Shown here piece after piece: positions 2,567 to 64,000 of a stretch of DNA of 64,000 nt. Below the pieces are notes generated by a model that had not been told where the DNA came from, did no database searches, and worked only from the letters and a program-made list of their open reading frames with translations. This DNA is from Candidatus Babelota bacterium. GTDB taxonomy: Bacteria; Babelota; Babeliae; Babelales; Vermiphilaceae. Every line of letters starts with the position of its first letter. Position 1 is the first letter of the stretch. The DNA lies in the NCBI GenBank assembly GCA_018266085.1, contig JAFEAZ010000008.1:3278-67277 (forward strand), written 5' to 3'. Position numbers and translations under genes: made by a program.

Positions 2567-3412
2567 ATGGAAACTATACGTTTCAAAGCCGTAGTGCTAG
2601 CCGTATGCTCTTTGACTTTCTCGGTCAGAGCTGGTGATCAAGCAGCACAAAAAGCGGTGATTTTTGATATAGGTGGGGTTTTGGCGGCCTCTGACAAGCT
2701 CCAGGCATTCAAAGCCACTGGGCCGCACCATTTTTTTTACTACTTTAGTGCCAATCCGTGCATGATCTCTGGATCGACTGAAAAAATTCGCAATCAACTG
2801 TTGTACCCCTTTTTGCGCTCCTGTATGCCGTATACGGCTACTGATTGCTTCGCTTATGATGAGTTTGGCCAACGATTGCCACAGCTGATGGTTGAGTGGA
2901 TGACCGGGCGTCTGAGTTGCCGTTCATTGCGCGCGATTTGTAAAGAAAACTGTGCGCTTTATTCGTCGTGGTTCGTCAGTCCCGCCGAGCGTGACCTTAT
3001 GTATGGTATGACCATGATGATGTTCACGCCGCACCATCTGGCGAATACGCAACAGTTGCTGTACAAGAGTCTTGATTTTGTGCGCGCGTGCAAAGCATCA
3101 GGCTATAAGCTCTATATTCTTTCAAACTGGGACTCTGAATCATTTCCTGAGCTGGTCAAAAAGGATCCAGATTTATTTGCTCTTTTTGATGGTATTGTGA
3201 TATCGGGTGATTGTGGGTACGTAAAGCCTGATCCGGCAATCTACCGGCATCTTTTGAATACCTATAATCTTGATCCACACGATACTTTCTTCATCGATGA
3301 TGTTATCCAAAACGTCCAGGCGGCGCGAGATGCCGGCATGACGGCTGCACAGTGCATGTTGTGTGATATTGATAGTATCAAGTCCGCATTTCATGCGTGG
3401 CAAAACGCTTAA
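2567..3412 (+). CDS. HAD-superfamily hydrolase with N-terminal signal peptide
   Basis: FDIGGVL (motif I), LSNWD, and FFIDDVIQNVQAARDAGM (motif IV-like). Signal-like N-terminus METIRFKAVVLAVCSLTFSVRA. Confidence 0.65.
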   Translation: METIRFKAVVLAVCSLTFSVRAGDQAAQKAVIFDIGGVLAASDKLQAFKATGPHHFFYYFSANPCMISGSTEKIRNQLLYPFLRSCMPYTATDCFAYDEFGQRLPQLMVEWMTGRLSCRSLRAICKENCALYSSWFVSPAERDLMYGMTMMMFTPHHLANTQQLLYKSLDFVRACKASGYKLYILSNWDSESFPELVKKDPDLFALFDGIVISGDCGYVKPDPAIYRHLLNTYNLDPHDTFFIDDVIQNVQAARDAGMTAAQCMLCDIDSIKSAFHAWQNA

Positions 3413-49789: not shown

Positions 49790-49863
49790 AATAGAGCCAG
49801 TATACTACAAAACAAAGCGTCTGCGAACGCTTACGTATGTACAGTACATGTAAAGGAGGAGCG

Positions 49864-51045
49864 ATGAAGCAGAATCGTGGCGTGGTATACAAAGGGCCTA
49901 ACCTTGTTGAAGTGCAAACAATCGATTACCCAAAGCTAGAGCACAATGGCCGAAACTGTCCGCATGGTGTTATTTTAAAGGTTATAGCAACCAATATCTG
50001 CGGAAGTGACCAGCATATGGTTCGAGGGAGAACCAGCGCGCCATCAGGACTTGTTCTGGGGCACGAAATTACCGGTGAAGTTATTGAAATAGGCTCCGAT
50101 GTTGAATTTATTAAACAGGGAGATCTTGTATCGGTCCCTTTTAATATAGCATGCGGTCGCTGTAGAAACTGCAAAGCAGGGCAGACCAGCATATGCTTGA
50201 CTACTAATGAATCGAGCATTGCAGGGGCAGCTTATGGGTATGTTGACATGGGTGGTTGGATTGGCGGGCAAGCAGAATATGTTATGGTTCCCTACGCAGA
50301 TTTTAATCTTTTAAAATTTCCAAACAAAGAACGTGCTATGGAGAAAATAAAAGATCTAGCGTTGCTTTCAGATGTTTTTCCTACCGGTTTTCATGGCGCT
50401 GTCCAAGCGAATGTTGGTCCAGGATCGATTGTCTATGTTGCTGGAGCGGGTCCTATTGGTTTGGCATGTGCGGCGTCATGCCAACTGCTTGGAGCGGCCT
50501 GTGTTATTGTAGGAGATTTAAAAAAGGCACGACTTGCGCAAGCCAGCAGTTTCGGCTGTTATACCGTAGATCTGTCTACAACCGACAGCCTGCCCGATGC
50601 GATTGAAAAGATTGTTGGTGTCCGTGAAGTGGATTCTGCTATCGATTGTGTTGGCTTTGAAGCGAAGAATAACAGTTTTGAAGAGCATGCACCGGCGGTA
50701 CTTAATACGATAATGAGGGTGGCAAGAGCAGGTAGCTCGCTCGGTATTGTTGGCTTGTATGTACCAAATGATCCTGGATCTCATGATGCATCTGCTCGGC
50801 AAGGAGAATTGGCAGTTCGTATAGGATTGGGATGGGCAAAGAGTCTTTCGTTGCATACAGGTCAAACTCCTGTTATGCGCTATAATAGACAGTTGATGAA
50901 CTGTATTTTGTATGACAAAATTGAGATAGCAAAAGCGGTTAATGTGGAAGTTGTCTCTCTTGATGATGCCGTAAAGGCTTATCATGAGTTTGATAATGGT
51001 GCACCAAAAAAGTTCATTGTAGACCCACACGGTCTTATCCGATAG
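49864..51045 (+). CDS. fdhA: glutathione-independent formaldehyde dehydrogenase (Zn-dependent MDR family)
   Basis: AGGAGG RBS. NRGVVYKGPNLVEVQTIDYPKL...HGVILKV.ATNICGSDQHMVRGRT...GQAEYVMVPYADFNLLKFP...HTGQTPVMRYNRQLM closely tracks my recollection of Pseudomonas FdhA along its whole length. Confidence 0.8.
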   Translation: MKQNRGVVYKGPNLVEVQTIDYPKLEHNGRNCPHGVILKVIATNICGSDQHMVRGRTSAPSGLVLGHEITGEVIEIGSDVEFIKQGDLVSVPFNIACGRCRNCKAGQTSICLTTNESSIAGAAYGYVDMGGWIGGQAEYVMVPYADFNLLKFPNKERAMEKIKDLALLSDVFPTGFHGAVQANVGPGSIVYVAGAGPIGLACAASCQLLGAACVIVGDLKKARLAQASSFGCYTVDLSTTDSLPDAIEKIVGVREVDSAIDCVGFEAKNNSFEEHAPAVLNTIMRVARAGSSLGIVGLYVPNDPGSHDASARQGELAVRIGLGWAKSLSLHTGQTPVMRYNRQLMNCILYDKIEIAKAVNVEVVSLDDAVKAYHEFDNGAPKKFIVDPHGLIR

Positions 51046-51068
51046 ATCTATAACAAAGGCAAGTACAG

Positions 51069-53384
51069 TCACGAAGATGTCCCCGCTTGAGCGGGGATCT
51101 TTTCTATTAACGGTTGAACCTCTGGGATGGTATCATTGGCAGTAGGCGCAGCTGGAATGCTGTCTAGTCTTTTCTCTATCCAATCGGATGATTCATCCGT
51201 TACAAGCCAGAGAGATTCGGCAAGAGAGCGCGTCTTTGGGTTAAAGGTGAAGAATAGCCCTTTGAGTGAATAATGACGTAAAGATTCCAGAGCGCTCATG
51301 ATACTTTCTCTGGTAAATGGTACGTTCAGTTTTTGTGCTACATCAAAAAAGAGGCTCATTCCAATATAGGATTCGAAAGAGAACCTATCATAGCTTTTTT
51401 TTATGTTATCCATCGCTTTGCGATATTCTCGTGCTATGGGCAGCTCACTATTTAACGGATTGGGAACGGGAGAGCCACATATAAAACGTAACCCATTTGC
51501 TTCGATGAAATATTGGAACGGCTTTTCAGCGATGAATGAAATAGCAAAGAAATATTTGTTTACGCATTGTTCGATTCCCATCTGCAAGATAAGAAGGCGT
51601 CCTGCTTGTGCCGTTGAGAAAAAGCCTATAGCATCGGGCTGGTAACTTCGTATCTCTTTCACTTGTTGTTCAAAATTGACTGTGCCGCGCGTGTAGGCAA
51701 GATCTATCCATGAAGTACCTTCTCTTTTTTTCAACTCAGCATGCGCTGCTTCAGCTGCTCCTATGCCATACGAATCATTTTGGTAAAAAAAGGCAAATTT
51801 TTTAGCTCCTATTGTAGTCGTTAGATATTCGAGTAAAAAGTAGATTTCTTCATCATAGGTTGGGCGTAGATGCATGATACCAGGCGCTGTAGAGGTGCGA
51901 AAAATAGAAGCTCCGGTTATCGGGAAAAATACTGAGATGGTATTATTTTTTACATAATCAAAATAGAGACTTAAGGTAGGACTTCCGACAGGAAATAATA
52001 TCAGATCTATCGATTCTTTGATGAGCTTTTGGATGTTTTGTAATGCCATATTAGGTGAATAATCATCATTATAGATATTGCTCTTAACAAGTCTACCTTG
52101 TATGCCTCCACTGTTGTTTTCAGCGTTAATACGGTTCATCATTCCCTGTTTTATTTCGTTGCCAATATGTGGCACGCCACTGATAAGCGACATTGTAGAG
52201 CCAATATTGATAGGATTAGTTAACGGCGTTTCGTTACGTGTGCCGACGGTAGTCGTTCCTGTCATCAGATTAAAAGTAGCTTTTGTTGCAAAATCCATTG
52301 AGTTTTCATTTCGCTGCCAAAATGATATAAGGCTTGTTCTCAACGATTTTTTGAGCGTTATTAAGGTATATGAATCTATGGCGCTCGTTACATCGGGCGA
52401 ATCGTTAGGAAAAATTGCAGGTAAGATGTTCCAATAAGAGGTCTCTAGATTATGCTCTACAAATGAGAGACCGAATATGCCAGCAGGTTCGAGATAGAGA
52501 TTGTCACTATTGATATCTACTCTCAGTGTGATCGGCTTGGTGCTCTCGTTTGCTTGTTCTTGGTTGAAAAAAACCAAAGGCTCTTTATTGTCTGTATTGA
52601 AAAGCTCATGGATGTGCGCTTCATCCATAATATCACCTTCGTCGAAGTTGGAGGATATTTTCATAAAATCTTGCGGTTGAGAGCTGATAGCAATATAGAT
52701 CGCTTTTGGCAACGAGCTGAAAAAAGTATTGAGCTCTTTTCTAAGTTCAACCACATCAAAGCTCTGCGCGCGCGTCTTTATCTCTCGATTCAAAGCGAAA
52801 TCGTTCCAATAGTTGTTGAGCTCCTGTCGAGAGCGGATCATAAAACAGTTGTCTGGATTGAGATCTAAAAGTGCCATTATAAGAGTGAGTGTTTCTAGGG
52901 CATAGGCCGATCCATTAATCGAGTAAGCATTGAACAACAGATAGATATCTTTGCGTAGTTTCAGCCTTTCATCGATTAACCCTTCTTTATTAAGCCATGT
53001 TAAGGTGCGTACGAGTCTATGGAAATGGCCACGCAAGCTACTGATAAGAATGATTGAACTATTTTCATTACATTGCAGACGAGAGGCGATCGTATTGATT
53101 TGACGATTAGCCTTTTTTGCTTCGATCGTCTTTTCGAGTAACTCCTTGAAATAACCGATTGTAAAGAAGTCGTGGAATCGATAGCCCCACGAGTCGAGCC
53201 AAGCGATAAAGGTATTGGGTAGATGTTTGTTATGAAATAAAGTGAAATCGGTGTTGCCCCACACTTTTGTTGCAGGCGGGTATTCTGGCATCTTCGCTGC
53301 ATAATCGGTCACCGTTTTTAACGTTATAGCATTGTTAAAGGTTCCTGTCAGCAAGCAACAAACAAGTAATGATCTTTTTTTCAT
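51069..53384 (-). CDS. secreted two-domain protein: degenerate PPP-type metallophosphatase-like domain plus type-1 periplasmic binding (LivK/ANF-receptor-like) domain
   Basis: Signal peptide MKKRSLLVCCLLTGTFNNA. PPP-like blocks carry substituted metal ligands (ILISSLRGHF, YLLFNAYSINGS, FMIRSRQE). The C-terminal half has PBP1 blocks (INIGSTMSLISGVPHIGNEIKQGMMNRINAENNSGGIQGRLV..., KFAFFYQNDSYGIG). Confidence 0.65.
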   Translation of the reverse strand: MKKRSLLVCCLLTGTFNNAITLKTVTDYAAKMPEYPPATKVWGNTDFTLFHNKHLPNTFIAWLDSWGYRFHDFFTIGYFKELLEKTIEAKKANRQINTIASRLQCNENSSIILISSLRGHFHRLVRTLTWLNKEGLIDERLKLRKDIYLLFNAYSINGSAYALETLTLIMALLDLNPDNCFMIRSRQELNNYWNDFALNREIKTRAQSFDVVELRKELNTFFSSLPKAIYIAISSQPQDFMKISSNFDEGDIMDEAHIHELFNTDNKEPLVFFNQEQANESTKPITLRVDINSDNLYLEPAGIFGLSFVEHNLETSYWNILPAIFPNDSPDVTSAIDSYTLITLKKSLRTSLISFWQRNENSMDFATKATFNLMTGTTTVGTRNETPLTNPINIGSTMSLISGVPHIGNEIKQGMMNRINAENNSGGIQGRLVKSNIYNDDYSPNMALQNIQKLIKESIDLILFPVGSPTLSLYFDYVKNNTISVFFPITGASIFRTSTAPGIMHLRPTYDEEIYFLLEYLTTTIGAKKFAFFYQNDSYGIGAAEAAHAELKKREGTSWIDLAYTRGTVNFEQQVKEIRSYQPDAIGFFSTAQAGRLLILQMGIEQCVNKYFFAISFIAEKPFQYFIEANGLRFICGSPVPNPLNSELPIAREYRKAMDNIKKSYDRFSFESYIGMSLFFDVAQKLNVPFTRESIMSALESLRHYSLKGLFFTFNPKTRSLAESLWLVTDESSDWIEKRLDSIPAAPTANDTIPEVQPLIEKIPAQAGTSS
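51076..51099. repeat. palindromic element, copy 6 (gatgtccccgcttgagcggggatc), overlapping the 3' end of the 771-aa CDS
   Basis: Stem TCCCCGC/GCGGGGA. The minus-strand frame through it encodes the protein C-terminus ...IPAQAGTSS. Confidence 0.75.
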
Positions 53385-53404
53385 TTGAGCACCTATTCCT
53401 CTTT

Positions 53405-54439
53405 TTAAATAACGAAATAGATGTTGAGCATAATAATCAGAAGATGCAACACGACGATGAAAGTTTTTCGATACAAAAGCCCTATGCCTTGTGAGAATTC
53501 ATCAAGCAGCAGAAACACGAAAGCAATAAAAATCGCAGCTAAGAAAATAAAGAACAGGTAATCTGAAAGCATAAAATAGCCTACCGCTGGCGAAAGCCTA
53601 TCGATAATGAAGCGGAAACTGATTAAAGCGGTAAGACCTACCGTTGGCAAGTAAAATTGGGAAGAGCTGCTGGTTGAAAAACCGAATAAAGAAAGATAGA
53701 AGAAGGTCAGCATAGGGAAAATGATCGATATAATGTAGCGATAGCTTGTTCTTGTGAAATCGATAAAGAAATCAATACAGGGGTCATAATTAGAGCGTTC
53801 ATGATCGGTATGTTCTACGGAATCGAAAGAAATCTTTCGGTACCCATAACGAACATATCTGTCGAGCATAGTCCAGCCGAAAGGTTGCGCATTGGCAGTA
53901 ATGTTAAAGTACCGATGCTCTGATACGAAGATTATCTCTTCAGGATCTAAGAAGATGTTGGTGAGTCTCAGGGTGACTCGATGCTCATCTAAAGGGAAAT
54001 AGGTATATGATAAAGGAGTTGAGAATTGAAGTCGTATACGATATTGTACCAACAGTTTTTTTTTCTCTAAAGAGATGATCGGTTCAGAAACGGACAATAA
54101 AGTGCCTCGTTGAAAGCTGAACTTATTCAACCTTTCGAGGTTGATAATGCTTGGGTCTGCAAGAAACCATAATGTGCCGACAATAACAAAATTATTGTTG
54201 ATAACATCGAATGTTTCATACTGTTCAATGGCAAGCCCGGTGAGAATCTTTGTATAGAAATCGCCAAATCTGGCCAGTGATATAGGATTATAGTCATTCA
54301 AAATTTCAATAGGATCTACCGGATCAAAGTTGCGGAGCTTATGGAGATAGATACCGGACAAGATGGTAATACTCAGAGCAATAAGCACGAGCTGGAACGG
54401 TATAGATACAAACAGTTGCGGTTTTTTTGATGCTGACAT
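53405..54439 (-). CDS. prokaryotic pentameric ligand-gated ion channel (Cys-loop receptor family) homologue
   Basis: YFPLDEHRVTLRL (F/Y-P-x-D loop without cysteines). M1 YRYIISIIFPMLTFFYLS. M2-M3 LSPAVGYFMLSDYLF. Four C-terminal TMs with a short M3-M4 loop. N-terminal signal anchor. Confidence 0.7.
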   Translation of the reverse strand: MSASKKPQLFVSIPFQLVLIALSITILSGIYLHKLRNFDPVDPIEILNDYNPISLARFGDFYTKILTGLAIEQYETFDVINNNFVIVGTLWFLADPSIINLERLNKFSFQRGTLLSVSEPIISLEKKKLLVQYRIRLQFSTPLSYTYFPLDEHRVTLRLTNIFLDPEEIIFVSEHRYFNITANAQPFGWTMLDRYVRYGYRKISFDSVEHTDHERSNYDPCIDFFIDFTRTSYRYIISIIFPMLTFFYLSLFGFSTSSSSQFYLPTVGLTALISFRFIIDRLSPAVGYFMLSDYLFFIFLAAIFIAFVFLLLDEFSQGIGLLYRKTFIVVLHLLIIMLNIYFVI

Positions 54440-54652
54440 GATTACAGACCTTTTTTTGAGTCGCTTATGAGTATAGTTATCTACTTACCATGTGCAAAAC
54501 AGGCTTGTCAATGATAATGGTGGCAGCGTAAGTGTCATGTCAAAATGAGCCATAGATGAACTCCTAGAGTGCTCGTTTCTTGAGAAATTCTCACGCTTTG
54601 TTACTGTAATAAAAAGCACGTATATCCTTTTTAACGCTAACAAAGGTTTTTT

Positions 54653-55192
54653 ATGCACGAACAGGATCTTCGACCACAGACCAACCAAGGAGAAACAGAT
54701 AATGAAAGCGTACAAACGCAGGAGACTGTCACCCTCGGGCTTGATCAATGCCGCCAAGAAATGGCTCAATGGAAAGAGCGATGCATGCGCATGACTGCCG
54801 ATTTTGAAAATTACAAAAGGCGCACAGAGAAAGAGCAGTCTTCATGGATGCGTTCAAGCAAGATGATGACATTGCGCGCCCTTTTACCAGTAATCGATAT
54901 TGTTGAGTTAGCATTGCTTGATTGCGCAAAGCGTGATCGCACTCCTGAAAATGAATCTTTTATTGCGGGTATTCAGATGATGGGTGCCGCTTTTCATAAG
55001 TTTTTAGAATCATCAGACGTGACAGACATCAAGCAAGTAACGCAGTTTGATCCTCTATTGCATGAAGCGATTGTACAGGTTGAATCTGATCAGCATCAAT
55101 CGGGTGATATTGTTGCTGTGCTACAAAAGGGATACCTGTTTGGCAAAGAGCAAGAAGTATTGAGACCTGCAAAGGTAAGCGTTGCCAAATAA
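54653..55192 (+). CDS. grpE: nucleotide exchange factor GrpE
   Basis: RMTADFENYKRRTEKE and the C-terminal LQKGYLFGKEQEVLRPAKVSV signature. Confidence 0.9.
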   Translation: MHEQDLRPQTNQGETDNESVQTQETVTLGLDQCRQEMAQWKERCMRMTADFENYKRRTEKEQSSWMRSSKMMTLRALLPVIDIVELALLDCAKRDRTPENESFIAGIQMMGAAFHKFLESSDVTDIKQVTQFDPLLHEAIVQVESDQHQSGDIVAVLQKGYLFGKEQEVLRPAKVSVAK

Positions 55193-58944: not shown

Positions 58945-59001
58945 CGGGCGCGGCCAGTCAAATGAGTGATTTCTTAAAATATTTTAGATTCGTAACATTT
59001 T

Positions 59002-59075
59002 GTGCCCGTAGCTCAGGTGGATAGAGCGGTAGATTCCTAATCTGCAGGCCACTGGTTCGAGTCCAGTCGGGCACA
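59002..59075 (+). tRNA. tRNA-Arg(CCT), no encoded CCA
   Basis: GTGCCCG/TA/GCTC-AGGTGGATA-GAGC/G/GTAGA-TTCCTAA-TCTGC/AGGCC/ACTGG-TTCGAGT-CCAGT/CGGGCAC-A. Confidence 0.85.
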
Positions 59076-59094
59076 ATAAGTTATATTAAATTGT

Positions 59095-59222
59095 GTGTTC
59101 GTAGCTCAGGTGAAAAGAGAGAATAGATTCCGTAATCTGCCGTCAGTCCTGCGAAGCTTGCCAAGCCAGAAGACATGGATAAGCGCAGAAGGAAGGCCAC
59201 TGGTTCGAGTCCAGCGTTTAGC
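59095..59222 (+). pseudogene. decayed duplicate of tRNA-Arg(CCT) interrupted by a tRNA-trailer repeat copy
   Basis: Shares cgtagctcaggtg...tagattcc(g)taatctgc and aggccactggttcgagtccag with the gene 20 nt upstream. It has an 8-nt anticodon loop, a ~56-nt insertion at the variable-loop position, and non-complementary acceptor arms (gtgttcg / cgtttag). Confidence 0.7.
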
Positions 59223-59297
59223 CCTCTGTAGTTTTAACGAAGTACGGGCGACAGTTTGTGTGTCTGCCTAAGCGCTCCTCATTTTCAACAATGAATA

Positions 59298-60227
59298 TTA
59301 CGATCGATTCGGTGCGTGATAACCGTTGCCCAACCGATTTTCCAGTGCAACAGCACGCTCTCGAAAGCGATTAGCTCGTGCAAGATGTGTTGGGTGTGTT
59401 GAAAACCAATTGGAGATAGCGTGAGTATTTTTTTTATCTACTTGCTTACTCTGTTGTGTAGCATACTTATTCAGCGCAAGTCTCATTAATGCATTATTGT
59501 GTTTTTTTTCGAATTCCTTGGCCTTTGCGTGCAAAAGATCAGGTTCATTGGGTACGCACTCATCCGCTTCCCATTCACACTTACGAGAAAGTGCTCGTTC
59601 TGCTAAATCACCTATTTTTTCTTTGGCCAGAATAAATGGACCAGCGCTTAATAGTAATAAAATTTTCATAGGCGAAAGAGGTGTTGTACGACAAACTTCT
59701 CTCATTGCTGTAGCTAACACACTTGTTACAACACAACCATCTATGGTCCTGGCTACCTTTAAAATATTTTTATTAAACTGTTCCTTTCTATCGCGATGCT
59801 TACACGATAAATGACCTGCTTCGTGATAAATGGAACCCTCTGCTTGTAGGTAATTTTGTCTGACTTGTTCTTCGTATCGCTTTTTAATCGTATCAATAGA
59901 GGCTGTAGAATCTAAATTATTTTTTTCGCAAATAATAGTATTTAACTGATCATAAGGCACAAGTATTTCTTCTCTGGAAGCCGTATATCTATCTGAAGAC
60001 CCAACCTTAATCGACTCAGGATTCTCCACTGAGCTCTTTTTCAATACCTGCCTAACGAATTCAATAACCTGATCTTTTGTTTCTGGCTGGTTTTTTGGTT
60101 GCTCCTGGGTTGAACTCTTACCAAACGGCCACAGAGTATGTGTCATAGGCGCATAAGTTACCGAAAGCCCCAAACAAAGCACTATATGCTTACATGTGTT
60201 CATAGAAGACAGGATGAGTTTCTTCAT
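59298..60227 (-). CDS. M48-family zinc metallopeptidase-like secreted protein
   Basis: Signal peptide, HEAGHLSCKH (HExxH), and the distal FSTHPTHLARANRF, typical of M48. Confidence 0.65.
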   Translation of the reverse strand: MKKLILSSMNTCKHIVLCLGLSVTYAPMTHTLWPFGKSSTQEQPKNQPETKDQVIEFVRQVLKKSSVENPESIKVGSSDRYTASREEILVPYDQLNTIICEKNNLDSTASIDTIKKRYEEQVRQNYLQAEGSIYHEAGHLSCKHRDRKEQFNKNILKVARTIDGCVVTSVLATAMREVCRTTPLSPMKILLLLSAGPFILAKEKIGDLAERALSRKCEWEADECVPNEPDLLHAKAKEFEKKHNNALMRLALNKYATQQSKQVDKKNTHAISNWFSTHPTHLARANRFRERAVALENRLGNGYHAPNRS

Positions 60228-60849
60228 AAGAATAAATCTCCATTACTTTGACACTCTTTAAGAAAGCTTCCCTACAGGCCACCCGCAAGATATTATAATT
60301 TTGTTATATATTGCTAATTGTAACTCTTTTGGCCAAAAAATCAATAGGATAGGGGCTTTTTAGGTTTGAACCAAGGAGGTTATGGGGGAATCCCCTGTAC
60401 TCTAGGGCGAGGCTTGAAGGATAGGCGCTGCAGTAAGTAATATTCAGAATGCAGCCCGCTTGCCAATTTCCTGTGCTACATAGTCAGGATCAAGAGCTGA
60501 GCCTTCCAGTTCTCACCATACGGTGTCATCTACTTTTTCCAAAAGGCGAGAAAAGCGATTAAACCAAATACCATCATTGGTAGTGCATACTTGCTCAGTT
60601 GAGGAAGCATCATAACGGGCAAATAATGAGCGTATATGTCCAGTTTTTGTAAATGAGGCTTGTGGAGATACGCATCATTGTTAAAACTCGCAAGCAGTAT
60701 GGAGCGGTCTGGTGTGCTTAAGCCTGCGGTAATGCCTTCTATAAAATAGGTTGCCGGGAGTGTTGGTGCATAATACCATTGATCGCTATACTGTAATATA
60801 GTATAATGAGATTAGAATTTTACCAAATTTCCAGAAAGTTGTGCTGTTT

Positions 60850-61005
60850 ATGGCTGTTAAATGGGTAATAAAGTATTGGCCGCCAAAAGATAAGCATGTT
60901 GTTGTTTTGTTAACTGCTGGTGATAAATCGACGCAAGAGAACGATATAAAAATAGCCCGTTTACGATTGTCTGAAGTGCTTGAGCGCGGAGAAGAATTGT
61001 TATGA
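60850..61005 (+). pseudogene. addiction-module killer (RelE/ParE superfamily) C-terminal fragment
   Basis: Manual translation: MAVKWVIKYWPPKDKHVVVLLTAGDKSTQENDIKIARLRLSEVLERGEELL. The block VVLLTAGDKSTQ..DI..A matches the C-terminal part of killer-protein toxins. Only about 51 codons, with an in-frame stop at 60799. ATGA overlap with the antitoxin. TATAAT at 60802. Confidence 0.4.
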
Positions 61006-61310
61006 AATTGAAGAATTTTAAGGATTTGGTTGAGGAATGTCTCACCAAGCAAGAGATCGCCGAAATTGAGCAACAGGCCCAGTTAGAACTGCAAGCTATG
61101 CAGTCATTGCAAAGTTGCCTCAAGAAAGCCATGGATGATTACATGAAAAAGAATAAGGTGGGTTTTAATGAACTGGTCAGAAGGCTGAATTCAAATCCTA
61201 GACAGGTTGCCAAGATACAACAAGGCAAGGCTAATTTAACATTGGCTAGTATTGCACACATAGCAGCGTTGCTTGGGCAAGAGCCGACTATTGTTTTTAA
61301 AAAGAAATGA
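61002..61310 (+). CDS. XRE-family helix-turn-helix antitoxin-like protein
   Basis: GFNELVRRLNSNPRQVAKIQQGKANLTLASIAHIAALLGQEPTIVF is a typical HTH_XRE domain. Confidence 0.65.
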   Translation: MKLKNFKDLVEECLTKQEIAEIEQQAQLELQAMQSLQSCLKKAMDDYMKKNKVGFNELVRRLNSNPRQVAKIQQGKANLTLASIAHIAALLGQEPTIVFKKK

Positions 61311-61346
61311 TGTTCAGTTTTAAATCATTTAGCTATCTTCCCGTAT

Positions 61347-61661
61347 TCATTCTTTTGCTGGCATATTTCCCCATGATAGGAACAGAATCTCTTTCAACTC
61401 AAAACCAATGATGGGCAAGCGATGCATCTTATCGATGATTGTACGCTTATAGTGTATCCCTTCATGTTCTTCGACAAAAAGACCCGTGCTTTCAATCTGG
61501 GTGATAGTTGCACTACAACTATTCTTTGAGCCAATATATAGGTAATAATCATATCCAAAATGAATGCGCATGTTTTTTGCTTCAAGCTTACACCAGAGAT
61601 CTTCTCTTAATGCTAATCGTCTAACGCTCTTTATATAGTGCGACCATACGTTTGAGTACAC
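61347..61661 (-). CDS. hypothetical protein
   Basis: GTG-start ORF of 104 aa with protein-like composition. No recognisable domain. Confidence 0.3.
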   Translation of the reverse strand: MYSNVWSHYIKSVRRLALREDLWCKLEAKNMRIHFGYDYYLYIGSKNSCSATITQIESTGLFVEEHEGIHYKRTIIDKMHRLPIIGFELKEILFLSWGNMPAKE

Positions 61662-61859
61662 TGTTTTAAAGGAGAGCCATTCTCATACGTGCAGATCCCG
61701 TTCTCTTGAAAGCATTCTTCTGCTATACTTTTTCATGTCACGCCAAACAGCTGGCTTAAAACTAACTGTGGAGCTCTGCGTATGCTCATGCTACTTGTCA
61801 CTATTGCACCGATGGTAGTATCTTTCGCATGCTTCTCACCTTTATTTGAGGAATAAATT

Positions 61860-62291
61860 ATGAACTTTTTAGATAATCTTCATGCAGTTTTGATTTCAAT
61901 AAGTATAGCTATTCTATTGCCTATAACGGTCTATTGGGGCGTCAGTAGTGTCTATGCCTGCCCGAATTGGCGAGACTTTAACCTAGAATATACACAAGAA
62001 CCTGACGCTGATGAGGCGCAAAACGATATACGGTTGGCAGCATGGGAAGAAGCAAAAAAACCCTTCAATAAGGCTCTTTTTTCCACAGCAACTTTGATAG
62101 GGCTATTGCTTATTGTCGTCGGCTCCTATAGCCCTATTAAGGCTCTTTCAATCGGATTACTTGCGGGCGGTTTATTCACTTTTTTAATGGGATTAACGGT
62201 CAATCCGGGCATAGCGCTCTTAAATTTTGTTATAGCAGCGCTTATTTTAATGATTATTATTGTTTCGTTAATGATACAGAGAAAAAGTTGA
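61860..62291 (+). CDS. hypothetical membrane protein (three or four TMs)
   Basis: GAGGA RBS. TMs AVLISISIAILLPITVYWGV, LIGLLLIVVGSY, LLAGGLFTFLMGL, LLNFVIAALILMIIIVSLMI. Confidence 0.5.
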   Translation: MNFLDNLHAVLISISIAILLPITVYWGVSSVYACPNWRDFNLEYTQEPDADEAQNDIRLAAWEEAKKPFNKALFSTATLIGLLLIVVGSYSPIKALSIGLLAGGLFTFLMGLTVNPGIALLNFVIAALILMIIIVSLMIQRKS

Positions 62292-62335
62292 CATCATCTT
62301 AACGGTTGAAGCAGCCGTTGATCTGCAAAAAAATA

Positions 62336-64000
62336 TTATTCTTGCCGAAGAGTAAATCCAATCAATCGGCTTGCGTTCAATAAGATAAGCACGTCGGAAA
62401 TGGCATGGAAAAAAGCGGCTTGAATCGGATTGATAAGATGCATCAAGGTTAAGGTGAATCCAAGAGCATGCATGAGCAGAAACCCAATAATAAGATTCTG
62501 TTTTATTATTCTAAAAACCTGTTGCGATAATTTTCGTACAAAATAGATATTGCCTAGCTGATTGGTCATGAGTACGATGTCGGCAGCTTCAATAGCAGGC
62601 TCCATACCCATGGCGCCCATGGCGATCCCAACGTTTGCTTGCTTGAGCGCTGCAACATCATTAATCCCATCCCCAATCATGGCGACGCTCATTCCTTGCT
62701 CTTGCAGCTGGTCAAGGAGCTTCAATTTGTCTTCGGGAAAGGCTTGCCCATAGGCGCGGGTAATACCAAGCTGTTGAGCGATAGTTTCAGTTATCGCTGT
62801 GCTGTCACCACTGAGCAGTATCATCTGGCTAATGCCAGCTTTTTTGAGACGTTCGATGGTAGCTTGTGCGTCAGGCCGTAGTGTGTCCATAACGGTTATC
62901 ATGCCAATAACCTTGCCATTGCAGGCAAGATAATGATTGCTGTAGCTATGTTGATTGGCAATTCTGTCGAAAGGAATGGGGCTATTGCCATGTTCTGGTG
63001 CTTCTATGAAATGCTCATTGCCAAAGAAATATCGCTTGCCGCCGAAAAGAATCTCAACACCATGACCGACCAGAGACACGTAGTTCTCTGGTTGATCAAG
63101 ATGTATATGAAGTTCAGCAGCCTTTTTTAAGAGCGTTTTTGCTATTACATGATCTGCTCTCAATTCCGAAATAGCCGCTATTTTTAGTATCTCTTGTTGT
63201 GTGTAGCCTGCATCAAATGAGTGAATATCGACGATGGTAGGTTCGCCGAGGGTGAGGGTTCCTGTCTTGTCAAAAATCATCGTAGTGACCGATGCGAGCT
63301 GTTCTAGTGCGCGACCCCCTTTAATTAGGATGCCGTGGCGAAATGCGGCGACAGTGCCTGCCAGTACCGTAAGCGGCGTTACTAATGAAAGTTCGAGCGG
63401 TGAGCCAAAGATGAGGAGCGTAATGACCAATTCAAGATTACCCGTGACGAGCCATACAATGAAAATGAGCAGCAAAATACTGGGGACCAAGATGAGCGCA
63501 ATTTTATTGGTCAGGAGTGTGATTTTTGCTTTTTTTTGTTCAGCCTGTTCAAACAATGAGGCCATTTTGCTAAACAAGCTCTCTTGATGCACTTTTTGTA
63601 CCTGGACAATGATGCTGCCGCTTTCAATAAAAGTTCCTGCAAAGACTTGATTGTTGATCCTTTTTTCTCGGGGCATGCTTTCGCCGGTAAGCGTCGCTTC
63701 GTTAATAGTCCCATTCCCCTCAATAATAAAACCATCAACTGGTATGCGGCTTCCTGTTTTTACCAGCACCTGCATGCCAGGCCGTACCTGTTCAATGGCA
63801 AGAACGGTCTCTCTGTTGTTTTCTAACACGATAGCCGTTGAAGGCATAAGTTTAATAAGGTTTTCAATGGCGTGATGCGTATGTTGTTCGATGATAATCT
63901 CAATATAGCGAGCAAAGAGCATGATTAGCAAGACATACATGATAGCTATTTCTTGTTTGCCAATCACGGCTACGATGGTTGCAAAAACGAGGAAGAATTC
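62336..64000 (-). CDS. P1B-like P-type ATPase, C-terminal about 555 codons; gene continues beyond the right edge
   Basis: TGES, DKTGTLT, GDGINDVAAL. The frame stays open from 63967 to 64000 (EFFLVFATIVAV...). The TM6 motif reads SPL instead of CPC/SPC. Confidence 0.85.
   Translation of the reverse strand, partial: EFFLVFATIVAVIGKQEIAIMYVLLIMLFARYIEIIIEQHTHHAIENLIKLMPSTAIVLENNRETVLAIEQVRPGMQVLVKTGSRIPVDGFIIEGNGTINEATLTGESMPREKRINNQVFAGTFIESGSIIVQVQKVHQESLFSKMASLFEQAEQKKAKITLLTNKIALILVPSILLLIFIVWLVTGNLELVITLLIFGSPLELSLVTPLTVLAGTVAAFRHGILIKGGRALEQLASVTTMIFDKTGTLTLGEPTIVDIHSFDAGYTQQEILKIAAISELRADHVIAKTLLKKAAELHIHLDQPENYVSLVGHGVEILFGGKRYFFGNEHFIEAPEHGNSPIPFDRIANQHSYSNHYLACNGKVIGMITVMDTLRPDAQATIERLKKAGISQMILLSGDSTAITETIAQQLGITRAYGQAFPEDKLKLLDQLQEQGMSVAMIGDGINDVAALKQANVGIAMGAMGMEPAIEAADIVLMTNQLGNIYFVRKLSQQVFRIIKQNLIIGFLLMHALGFTLTLMHLINPIQAAFFHAISDVLILLNASRLIGFTLRQE

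Follow-up and report, generated by a model that had tools for sequence, protein, structure and literature searches.

A divergent pentameric ligand-gated ion channel homologue and its predicted pseudophosphatase/Venus-flytrap partner in a Candidatus Babelota bacterium

The 64,000-nucleotide stretch of DNA analysed here (hereafter the window; positions 3,278 to 67,277 of contig JAFEAZ010000008.1, assembly GCA_018266085.1, from a Candidatus Babelota bacterium) encodes a 344-residue protein that is almost certainly homologous to the pentameric ligand-gated ion channel (pLGIC) family and, immediately downstream, a 771-residue partner in which a predicted pseudophosphatase domain precedes a Venus-flytrap-type binding domain. 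Physical association of the two proteins is quite probable, and we consider it moderately likely that they operate as a two-component sensor-channel, of which the divergent Pro-loop pLGIC is one half, with ligand binding assigned to the partner. Pentamer formation, ion conduction and selectivity, docking of the unfused partner, its function as a ligand-binding protein and the identity of the ligand are properties that we infer.

Homology and predicted fold

The open reading frame (ORF) of the 344-residue protein runs from ATG to stop and, in the ORF listing, occupies exactly 53405..54439 on the minus strand (Table 1), the plus-strand frame of the same interval being riddled with stops. The identical protein is on deposit under the name 'hypothetical protein JST99_01475 [Candidatus Dependentiae bacterium]'. 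Another 23 homologues were retrieved, with identities ranging from 87% down to 30% and none having a precomputed Pfam domain. The gene is thus real and conserved, and not a chance ORF.

An initial annotation, made from the window sequence, had proposed, without naming a strand, that the protein is a pLGIC homologue and had suggested searching for the Pfam domains Neur_chan_LBD and Neur_chan_memb, together with structure prediction, as checks. The homology is supported, but the proposed Pfam route does not detect it: neither PF02931 (Neur_chan_LBD) nor PF02932 (Neur_chan_memb) matches the protein at E ≤ 1, such that reliance on this search would wrongly have led to rejection of the assignment. 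When 24 family members were compared with Pfam, only one of the 24 gave a match, to Neur_chan_LBD and below threshold (E 0.031), and the NCBIfam models LIC and LGIC_1 gave E-values of ~0.08 (scores of 11.6 and 12.2 bits, where 280 and 500 are required). These failures reflect the limited sensitivity of the models and are not a defining biological feature.

A search of the PDB with the single sequence returned pLGIC chains only, the best being an ELIC/GLIC chimera (E 1.5e-5). With a profile built from an alignment of 24 family sequences (A1, also used for structure prediction), GLIC was matched with an E-value of 3.8e-12, continuously from the Pro-loop through the fourth membrane helix, M4 (profile positions 139-342); 155 PDB sequences were found at E ≤ 0.01, and the best 60 of these 155 are all GLIC or ELIC chains. 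AlphaFold2 (AF2), run on A1, gave a single-chain model with a predicted local distance difference test score (pLDDT) of 87 and a predicted TM-score (pTM) of 0.78, comprising an N-terminal helix (residues 13-36), β-strands (63-230) and helices at 234-255, 260-282, 291-315 and 321-343, i.e. the β-sandwich plus four-helix bundle that the structural check called for. Searching the PDB with this model using Foldseek, the leading match was again GLIC (E 6e-16, TM-score 0.62-0.72, ~310-330 aligned columns, 14-16% identity), in an alignment that takes in the whole extracellular domain, followed by sTeLIC, GluCl and GABA-A receptors (E ~1e-15); there were 1107 matches at E ≤ 0.001, the best 50 of which are all pLGICs.

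On the basis of sequence comparison and the predicted fold, the protein is assigned as a highly divergent, cysteine-less, 'Pro-loop' type pLGIC subunit. The peptides first singled out as family hallmarks are all present, i.e. YFPLDEHRVTLRL (residues 147-159), YRYIISIIFPMLTFFYLS (233-250) and LSPAVGYFMLSDYLF (282-296), and, as had been stated, no cysteines flank the Pro-loop, there being none around residues 140-158. The disulfide-forming cysteine pair, 13 residues apart, of metazoan-type Cys-loop receptors is therefore absent, in which respect the protein resembles other prokaryotic pLGICs. The M3–M4 loop is indeed very short, with 5 residues between helices 291-315 and 321-343 in the AF2 model, and M4 is terminal. 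The β-rich domain had been said to end at the FPLD loop; in fact that loop comprises residues 147-153 and the extracellular domain continues to about residue 232.

Table 1. Features of the channel and partner genes (window coordinates; aa, residues of the encoded protein)
Feature	Position	Strand	Basis or remark
Coding sequence, divergent pLGIC (Pro-loop receptor) subunit, stop codon included	53405..54439	-	ORF; profile match to GLIC; AF2; Foldseek
Predicted extra transmembrane helix M0, aa 13-36	54332..54403	-	AF2 helix 13-36, block pLDDT ~87-94
Predicted periplasmic β-sandwich, aa 37-232	53744..54331	-	AF2 strands 63-230; Foldseek alignment to GLIC
Pro-loop motif Y147-F-P-L-D-E-H153, Cys-loop equivalent without cysteines	53981..54001	-	Sequence reading; conservation
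Predicted four-helix transmembrane domain: M1 234-255, M2 260-282, M3 291-315, M4 321-343	53411..53740	-	AF2
Predicted pore helix M2 and M2–M3 loop, aa 260-290	53570..53662	-	Alignment to GLIC
Intergenic spacer, 20 nt, with Shine-Dalgarno-like GAGGA at 53397-53401	53385..53404	-	Sequence reading
Coding sequence, 771-aa partner	51069..53384	-	ORF; downstream, same strand as channel in 23/24 loci
Predicted Sec signal peptide, aa 1 to ~21, MKKRSLLVCCLLTGTFNNA	53322..53384	-	Sequence reading
Predicted PPP-type (PP1/PP2A/PP5-like) pseudophosphatase domain, aa ~22-385	52230..53321	-	Profile, AF2 fold, motif substitutions
Type-I periplasmic binding (Venus-flytrap, LivJ/ANF-receptor-like) domain, aa 391-728	51201..52214	-	Pfam Peripla_BP_6
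Intergenic region, shared with divergent gene 54653-55192; presumed promoter region of the two-gene operon	54440..54652	-	Gene layout

Conservation was assessed across 172 family representatives aligned to the A1 profile. The motifs named at the outset, i.e. the Pro-loop, the M1 proline and the M2–M3 junction, proved to be the most conserved positions of the family. In the Pro-loop, F148 (97%), P149 (100%), D151 (73%, plus Glu in 13%) and H153 (97%) are retained; so are P242 in M1 (98%), P284 in the M2–M3 segment (position 23', 100%), Y288 in the M2–M3 loop (98%), D293 at the start of M3 (99%) and W189 in the motif before β9 (97%). Of all segments of the protein, the M2–M3 loop varies least (1.19 bits). 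The alignment with GLIC is free of gaps from M1 to M3, and the pre-M1 residue R230 (Arg in 65% and Lys in 18%, together 83%) aligns with the pre-M1 Arg of GLIC. Together with D78 at the end of β1 (79%) and D151, R230 forms what we take to be the counterpart of the GLIC Asp-Asp-Arg interface triad, R230 being placed by the alignment, whereas for D78 the assignment relies solely on where it lies in the model. Conserved positions in the β-sandwich are G68, F77, D78, W91, F92, W189 and G199, and the extracellular aromatic residues W91, F92, Y133, W189 and Y200 are highly conserved. The loop C region is variable and is occupied in only 124 of the 172 members; loop F is variable too. Such variability fits a gating input that is independent of a single conserved orthosteric pocket.

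The hydrophobic N-terminal segment was initially thought to be a probable signal anchor, an idea that is borne out and can be refined. Rather than a signal peptide that is cleaved off, the segment appears to be a retained fifth transmembrane helix, M0, because its uncharged stretch has a median length of 23 residues (at least 19 in 83% of 163 members), because it has a conserved polar face (Q16 in 76%, Ser/Thr at position 23 in 79%), and because M0 is internal in N-extended variants (P0123, P0143, P0149, P0163, P0175 and P0180) that have about 3-7 additional predicted N-terminal transmembrane segments. The first four of these variants are 541-577 residues long and the last two ~447 residues; P0123 comes from a Candidatus Dependentiae metagenome-assembled genome (MAG). 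The extra block has no Pfam match, and its repeated 'FF(G/A)(I/T)SH' motifs suggest an origin by internal duplication.

The family is substantial. An exhaustive HMMER search with the A1 profile of 1.84 billion representatives clustered at 50% identity gave 388 clusters at E ≤ 1e-30, a number that rises to 823 at ≤ 1e-10 and to 2663 at ≤ 1e-3, with a median member length of 348 residues. When GTDB was scanned with each species represented by a single genome, 19 loci were obtained. All the meaningfully named source records are Candidatus Dependentiae, Babeliales or candidate division TM6, and the others are MAGs or generically labelled 'uncultured Pseudomonadota'. The members are named 'hypothetical protein' at source, save for one fusion (see below) named 'branched-chain amino acid transport system substrate-binding protein'.

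The partner protein

The N terminus of the partner, in which a hydrophobic core succeeds a basic N-region, reads as a Sec signal peptide, and the AF2 pLDDT is <50 for residues 1-17. The C-terminal binding domain is matched by Peripla_BP_6 with an E-value of 2.7e-31 (109.9 bits, against a cut-off of 31.7), and its nearest solved structure is 4kv7, a 'probable Leu/Ile/Val-binding protein' (E 2.5e-20).

The nature of the ~360-residue N-terminal domain emerges only from family-level comparisons. As a single sequence, the window copy has no Pfam match and in the PDB gives noise plus one PPP match (E 1.1); a word-indexed homologue search with the domain alone gave no matches, and one with the full-length partner gave at least 8 proteins. 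By contrast, a profile made from 17 orthologous N-terminal domains drawn from the loci (alignment A3) matches the catalytic subunits of PP2A, PP5 and PP1, with E-values from 2.8e-7 (PP2A) to 1e-5, and 11 of the 17 orthologous domains, the window copy not among them, pass the Pfam Metallophos threshold. An AF2 model of the window domain, built on 9 sequences (pLDDT 74, pTM 0.82), gave Foldseek matches to PP5, PP1, PP2A and calcineurin at E ~4e-9, the top 50 all being PPPs. The leading structural matches are all to eukaryotic-type members of that family.

The PPP signature motifs are, however, degenerate. The window copy has SSLRG in place of GDxHG, NAYSING in place of GDxxDRG and RSRQE in place of RGNHE, such that every metal-binding or catalytic residue of motifs I-III is substituted, and, as read by eye, none of the orthologues in A3 keeps all three N-terminal motifs. 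The L007 copies are among the orthologues in which the motifs are best preserved. Because the catalytic motifs are replaced in the window copy and are complete in none of the A3 sequences, the domain is classed, from its sequence, as a pseudophosphatase and not as an enzyme.

Gene linkage and fusions

The partner gene begins 20 nt past the channel stop codon on the same strand, a tight linkage that the initial annotation had pointed out and that recurs across the family. When the two halves of the partner were searched by tblastn against 24 loci with channel homologues, the two-domain partner gene was found immediately downstream, on the same strand, in 23 of the 24, over a range of channel identities from 30 to 83%. 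Elsewhere the channel and partner genes adjoin or overlap one another, and the flanking genes vary, e.g. EF-P/NusB in one locus and a peptidase plus a PALP enzyme in another. Tandem expansions are common: one channel may have two or three partners after it, and the orders channel-partner-channel and channel-channel-partner also occur. Tandem amplification is seen in many Dependentiae genomes, at loci L004, L007, L010, L011, L014, L016, L017, L018, L020, L022 and L023, which is striking given genome sizes of only ~1.2-1.7 Mb.

The partner, or its binding domain alone, is also found covalently joined to the channel C terminus, in six 50%-identity clusters among the top 150 representatives. P0046, P0116 and P0137 (~1,100 residues) have the order channel-Metallophos-Peripla_BP_6; P0125, of similar length, has the channel followed by the partner region, the intervening ~400 residues having no Pfam match; and P0130 and P0166 (~750 residues) have the order channel-Peripla_BP_6. 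P0116 is a single uninterrupted ORF of 1,103 codons on a 38-kb contig. The junction lies after M4, which is the periplasmic end in pLGIC topology, in agreement with the predicted signal peptide of the partner in its unfused form. From the fused linkers the hydrophobic signal segment is lost, as expected if both parts are already periplasmic.

Association with permease or ATPase genes, as would be anticipated for the receptor of an ATP-binding cassette (ABC) importer, was not observed: no ABC-transporter Pfam families occur among the annotated neighbours of the module in loci L001-L004 and L025, a result that covers only four annotated contexts. Beside P0116, at L025:1-4657 (-), there is a gene for a protein of >1,680 residues with a weak match to Peptidase_C48 (SUMO/Ulp-like protease), a domain of eukaryote-like type that is characteristic of the effectors intracellular bacteria produce.

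A separate observation concerns the reading frames: in 5 of 20 loci (L001, L009, L011, L019 and L020) channel and partner are in the same frame and separated by a single stop codon. Programmed read-through was considered and rejected, because 5 of 20 is close to the one-third expected by chance; the arrangement does show how a point mutation could yield the observed fusions.

Taken with the homology data, the linkage bears on the possibility that the pLGIC resemblance is spurious and the adjacency coincidental. The missing Pfam match and the NCBIfam E-value of ~0.08 speak for such an explanation, but the profile match (E 3.8e-12), the fold match (E 6e-16, TM-score up to 0.72), the coincidence of the invariant residues with superfamily hallmarks, the adjacency in 23/24 loci and the natural fusions leave it with a very small probability, and we regard it as effectively refuted.

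Proposed mechanism

In the proposed mechanism each subunit would contribute five membrane helices (M0 plus M1–M4) and a periplasmic β-sandwich. The co-transcribed 771-residue partner would be exported to the periplasm and would dock on the channel at a 1:1 subunit ratio, its catalytically dead PPP-phosphatase-fold domain serving as a rigid adaptor. The Venus-flytrap domain would then capture a small solute, probably an amino-acid-like host metabolite, a guess made because the domain belongs to a LivJ-like family. Closure of the flytrap would be passed to the coupling interface, made up of the β1–β2 Asp, the FPxD Pro-loop, the pre-M1 Arg and the M2–M3 loop, and the pore would open, its main hydrophobic constriction probably being the ring of Phe residues at 16'. 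In ELIC, a Phe at 16' is likewise a pore constriction.

A wider proposal, which is put forward tentatively and may well prove incorrect, is that there is a hitherto unrecognised, Dependentiae-wide class of five-transmembrane-helix pentameric channels whose gating ligand would be a periplasmic protein dedicated to that purpose, and not a small molecule bound in their own extracellular domain. In this class a Venus-flytrap sensor held by a dead-PPP adaptor would convert the sensing of host metabolites into ion flux, and the whole would be a bacterial receptor-channel made of two (sometimes fused) polypeptides in an obligate intracellular symbiont.

Pore lining and alternative readings

M2 positions were numbered from the gap-free GLIC alignment (Q261 = 0', T270 = 9', F277 = 16', P284 = 23'); the residues predicted to line the pore are given in Table 2.

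Table 2. M2 positions in the family and in the window protein
M2 position	Family	Window protein
2'	S/T/G	Y263
6'	G/A/S	V267
9'	T 58%, S 18%, A 10%	T270
13'	A/G/S	S274
15'	R 85%	R276
16'	F 92%	F277
17'	V 89%	I278
20'	N/S/R/K	R281

Several observations weigh against the sensor-channel model, in addition to the lack of detection by the Pfam and NCBIfam models. The ring of Leu/Ile residues at 9', which is near-universal in pLGICs though not strictly defining, is absent, 9' being Thr, Ser or Ala in 86% of the family and the conserved hydrophobic ring being located at 16'/17' instead; there is neither a conserved acidic ring at -1'/-2' nor a Pro-Ala-Arg motif among the 172 representatives; and the window protein carries Tyr at 2' and Pro at 4'. 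With so atypical a pore lining, conduction and selectivity are not to be assumed, and the type of ion selected is not inferable from sequence, since the M1–M2 loop and positions -2' to 0' are unconserved. With respect to the partner, one homologue (P0021, L005:8001-9062), which is the most divergent examined, is the sole one without a partner nearby, and several loci have unequal numbers of channel and partner genes (1:2, 1:3 or 2:1). The variability of loop C might equally mean that each paralogue binds a ligand of its own directly. As regards ligand identity, the closest solved relatives of the binding domain are structural-genomics 'Leu/Ile/Val-binding' proteins. At the P0021 locus the 3' end of the gene overlaps a convergent secA gene.

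The unusual lining, together with the lack of a recognisable selectivity filter, is also what might be seen if the protein had the pLGIC fold but did not conduct ions, acting only as an anchor or transmembrane transducer for the periplasmic sensor. In the window protein the pore could be blocked by the bulky side-chain rings that Tyr 2' and Phe 16' would form, and the degenerate state of the enzyme domain in the partner makes functional degeneracy elsewhere in the module plausible. We nonetheless judge a non-conducting protein improbable. Conservation is highest in the M2–M3 loop and the Pro-loop, at the pre-M1 Arg and at M2 positions 15'-18', which is the pattern expected under selection for pore gating, and across the family 2', 6', 9' and 13' are small and polar, compatible with a water-filled pore; the cytoplasmic loops, moreover, have only 4-5 residues and offer no obvious intracellular output surface.

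A second alternative, which appears unlikely but carries appreciable weight, is that of a classical, self-contained channel, the β-sandwich of which binds an agonist at the subunit interface while the partner concentrates or presents the solute or tunes the kinetics. The full fold and the coupling residues are kept, the extracellular aromatics are highly conserved, and P0021 lacks a neighbouring partner, all of which would be consistent with a channel able to work alone. A pre-concentration role has been proposed for pLGICs linked to periplasmic binding proteins (PBPs) or Cache proteins (Tasneem et al. 2005, PMC549065), and the accessory periplasmic domain of DeCLIC can be purely modulatory. 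However, loop C, one of the loops of the classical site, shows the poorest conservation and the lowest occupancy within the extracellular domain. The 23/24 linkage and the six independent 1:1 covalent fusions also point beyond loose cooperation, and pre-concentration leaves the ~360-residue dead-phosphatase adaptor unexplained.

Comparison with known systems

Considered as a sensor-channel, the module can be compared with several characterized systems. With GLIC and ELIC/sTeLIC the channel shares its overall fold (Foldseek E ~1e-15, TM-score 0.6-0.7), the lack of Cys-loop cysteines, the FPxD Pro-loop, the M1 Pro, the pre-M1 Arg, the 23' Pro and a very short M3–M4 loop. By contrast, identity is only 14-17%; a conserved, predicted N-terminal transmembrane helix is present in place of a cleaved signal peptide; 9' is Thr/Ser, not Ile/Leu, and there is no Glu at -2'; invariants specific to the family are found at H153 of the Pro-loop, at R276 (15') and in the SPxVGYFMxSD junction; and the partner gene is obligate.

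Bacterial pLGICs with N-terminal PBP-I fusions, and conserved operons of pLGICs with stand-alone PBP-II or Cache genes, were described by Tasneem, Iyer, Jakobsson & Aravind in 2005, who proposed a chemotaxis role for the PBP-linked forms (PMC549065). A pLGIC core and a periplasmic solute-binding module are common to both sets. In the present family, however, PBP-I is located on a separate secreted protein or C-terminally, after M4, with no N-terminal fusion of the earlier kind, and a ~360-residue PPP pseudophosphatase domain is usually interposed between channel and PBP-I. Dependentiae are generally non-motile intracellular symbionts of protists, which makes a chemotaxis role unlikely here; speculatively, the Dependentiae module is more plausibly a means of sensing the host environment.

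DeCLIC, from Desulfofustis, is a prokaryotic pLGIC whose mass, as here, is roughly doubled by accessory periplasmic domains, which modulate its gating. The DeCLIC accessory domain is N-terminal and in the same chain, its two lobes having been likened to regulatory regions that bind calcium in other prokaryotic proteins, whereas in the present case the accessory mass comprises PPP-fold and Venus-flytrap domains that are separately encoded or C-terminally fused. If the proposed mechanism is right there would also be a similarity, by analogy only, to ionotropic glutamate receptors and mGluR/ANF-type receptors, in which closure of a type-I PBP-like clamshell drives a membrane domain, a parallel drawn already in the work on DeCLIC and by Tasneem et al.; the core is unrelated, being that of a pentameric Pro-loop receptor as opposed to a tetrameric P-loop pore or a seven-transmembrane-helix domain. 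With PP1, PP2A, PP5 and calcineurin, the partner N-terminal domain shares its fold, and many orthologues pass Pfam Metallophos, but it differs in being, as predicted, periplasmic, in being attached to a solute-binding domain and in not having the full set of catalytic motifs.

Implications

Bacterial pLGICs, N-terminal PBP-I fusions, operons with PBP-II/Cache genes and the DeCLIC accessory domain are already known. A literature search, in which subscription journals were thinly covered, found no description of the Dependentiae family, the M0 helix, a C-terminal or in-trans sensor, or a PPP-pseudophosphatase adaptor; TM6 is unmentioned by Jaiteh et al. (2016). For most prokaryotic pLGICs neither the physiological ligand nor the role is known, and DeCLIC is the only accessory-domain pLGIC to have been studied structurally. 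In this respect the soluble binding domain, which can be screened alone, gives direct experimental access to the ligand, while cryo-electron microscopy of the coupling between an accessory sensor and a pLGIC gate finds ready-made targets in the natural single-chain fusions.

Hundreds of sequences are missed by current domain models, and inventories of the superfamily, as well as evolutionary scenarios derived from them, are thus incomplete. The results also point to conservation of a signalling system in the Dependentiae, whose genomes are reduced and in which the mechanisms of host sensing are essentially unknown.

The locus

No second copy of the channel gene or of the partner gene is present within the window. 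The divergent gene at 54653-55192 looks, by eye, like grpE. Upstream of the channel gene there is a TTGACA-18-CATTAT match at 54543-54514, which is weak evidence for a promoter: promoter-like sites were not enriched over shuffled sequences (13 vs 10.8), nor were terminators (5 vs 3.2), and consequently the scans give no real evidence on the operon boundaries.

At the other end of the module, just past the convergent plus-strand gene at 49837-51045, a GC-rich hairpin with a T-run occurs at 51079-51098 (+), GTCCCCGC-TTGA-GCGGGGAT CTTTTCT. It overlaps the final codons of the partner gene and may be a terminator shared between the convergent genes.

The G+C content of the two-gene module (51000-54500) is 0.39-0.41, compared with 0.44-0.51 in the flanks, which could reflect the composition of genes for membrane and secreted proteins or a foreign origin; a second low-G+C stretch in the window lies at ~59-62.5 kb (59000-62500).

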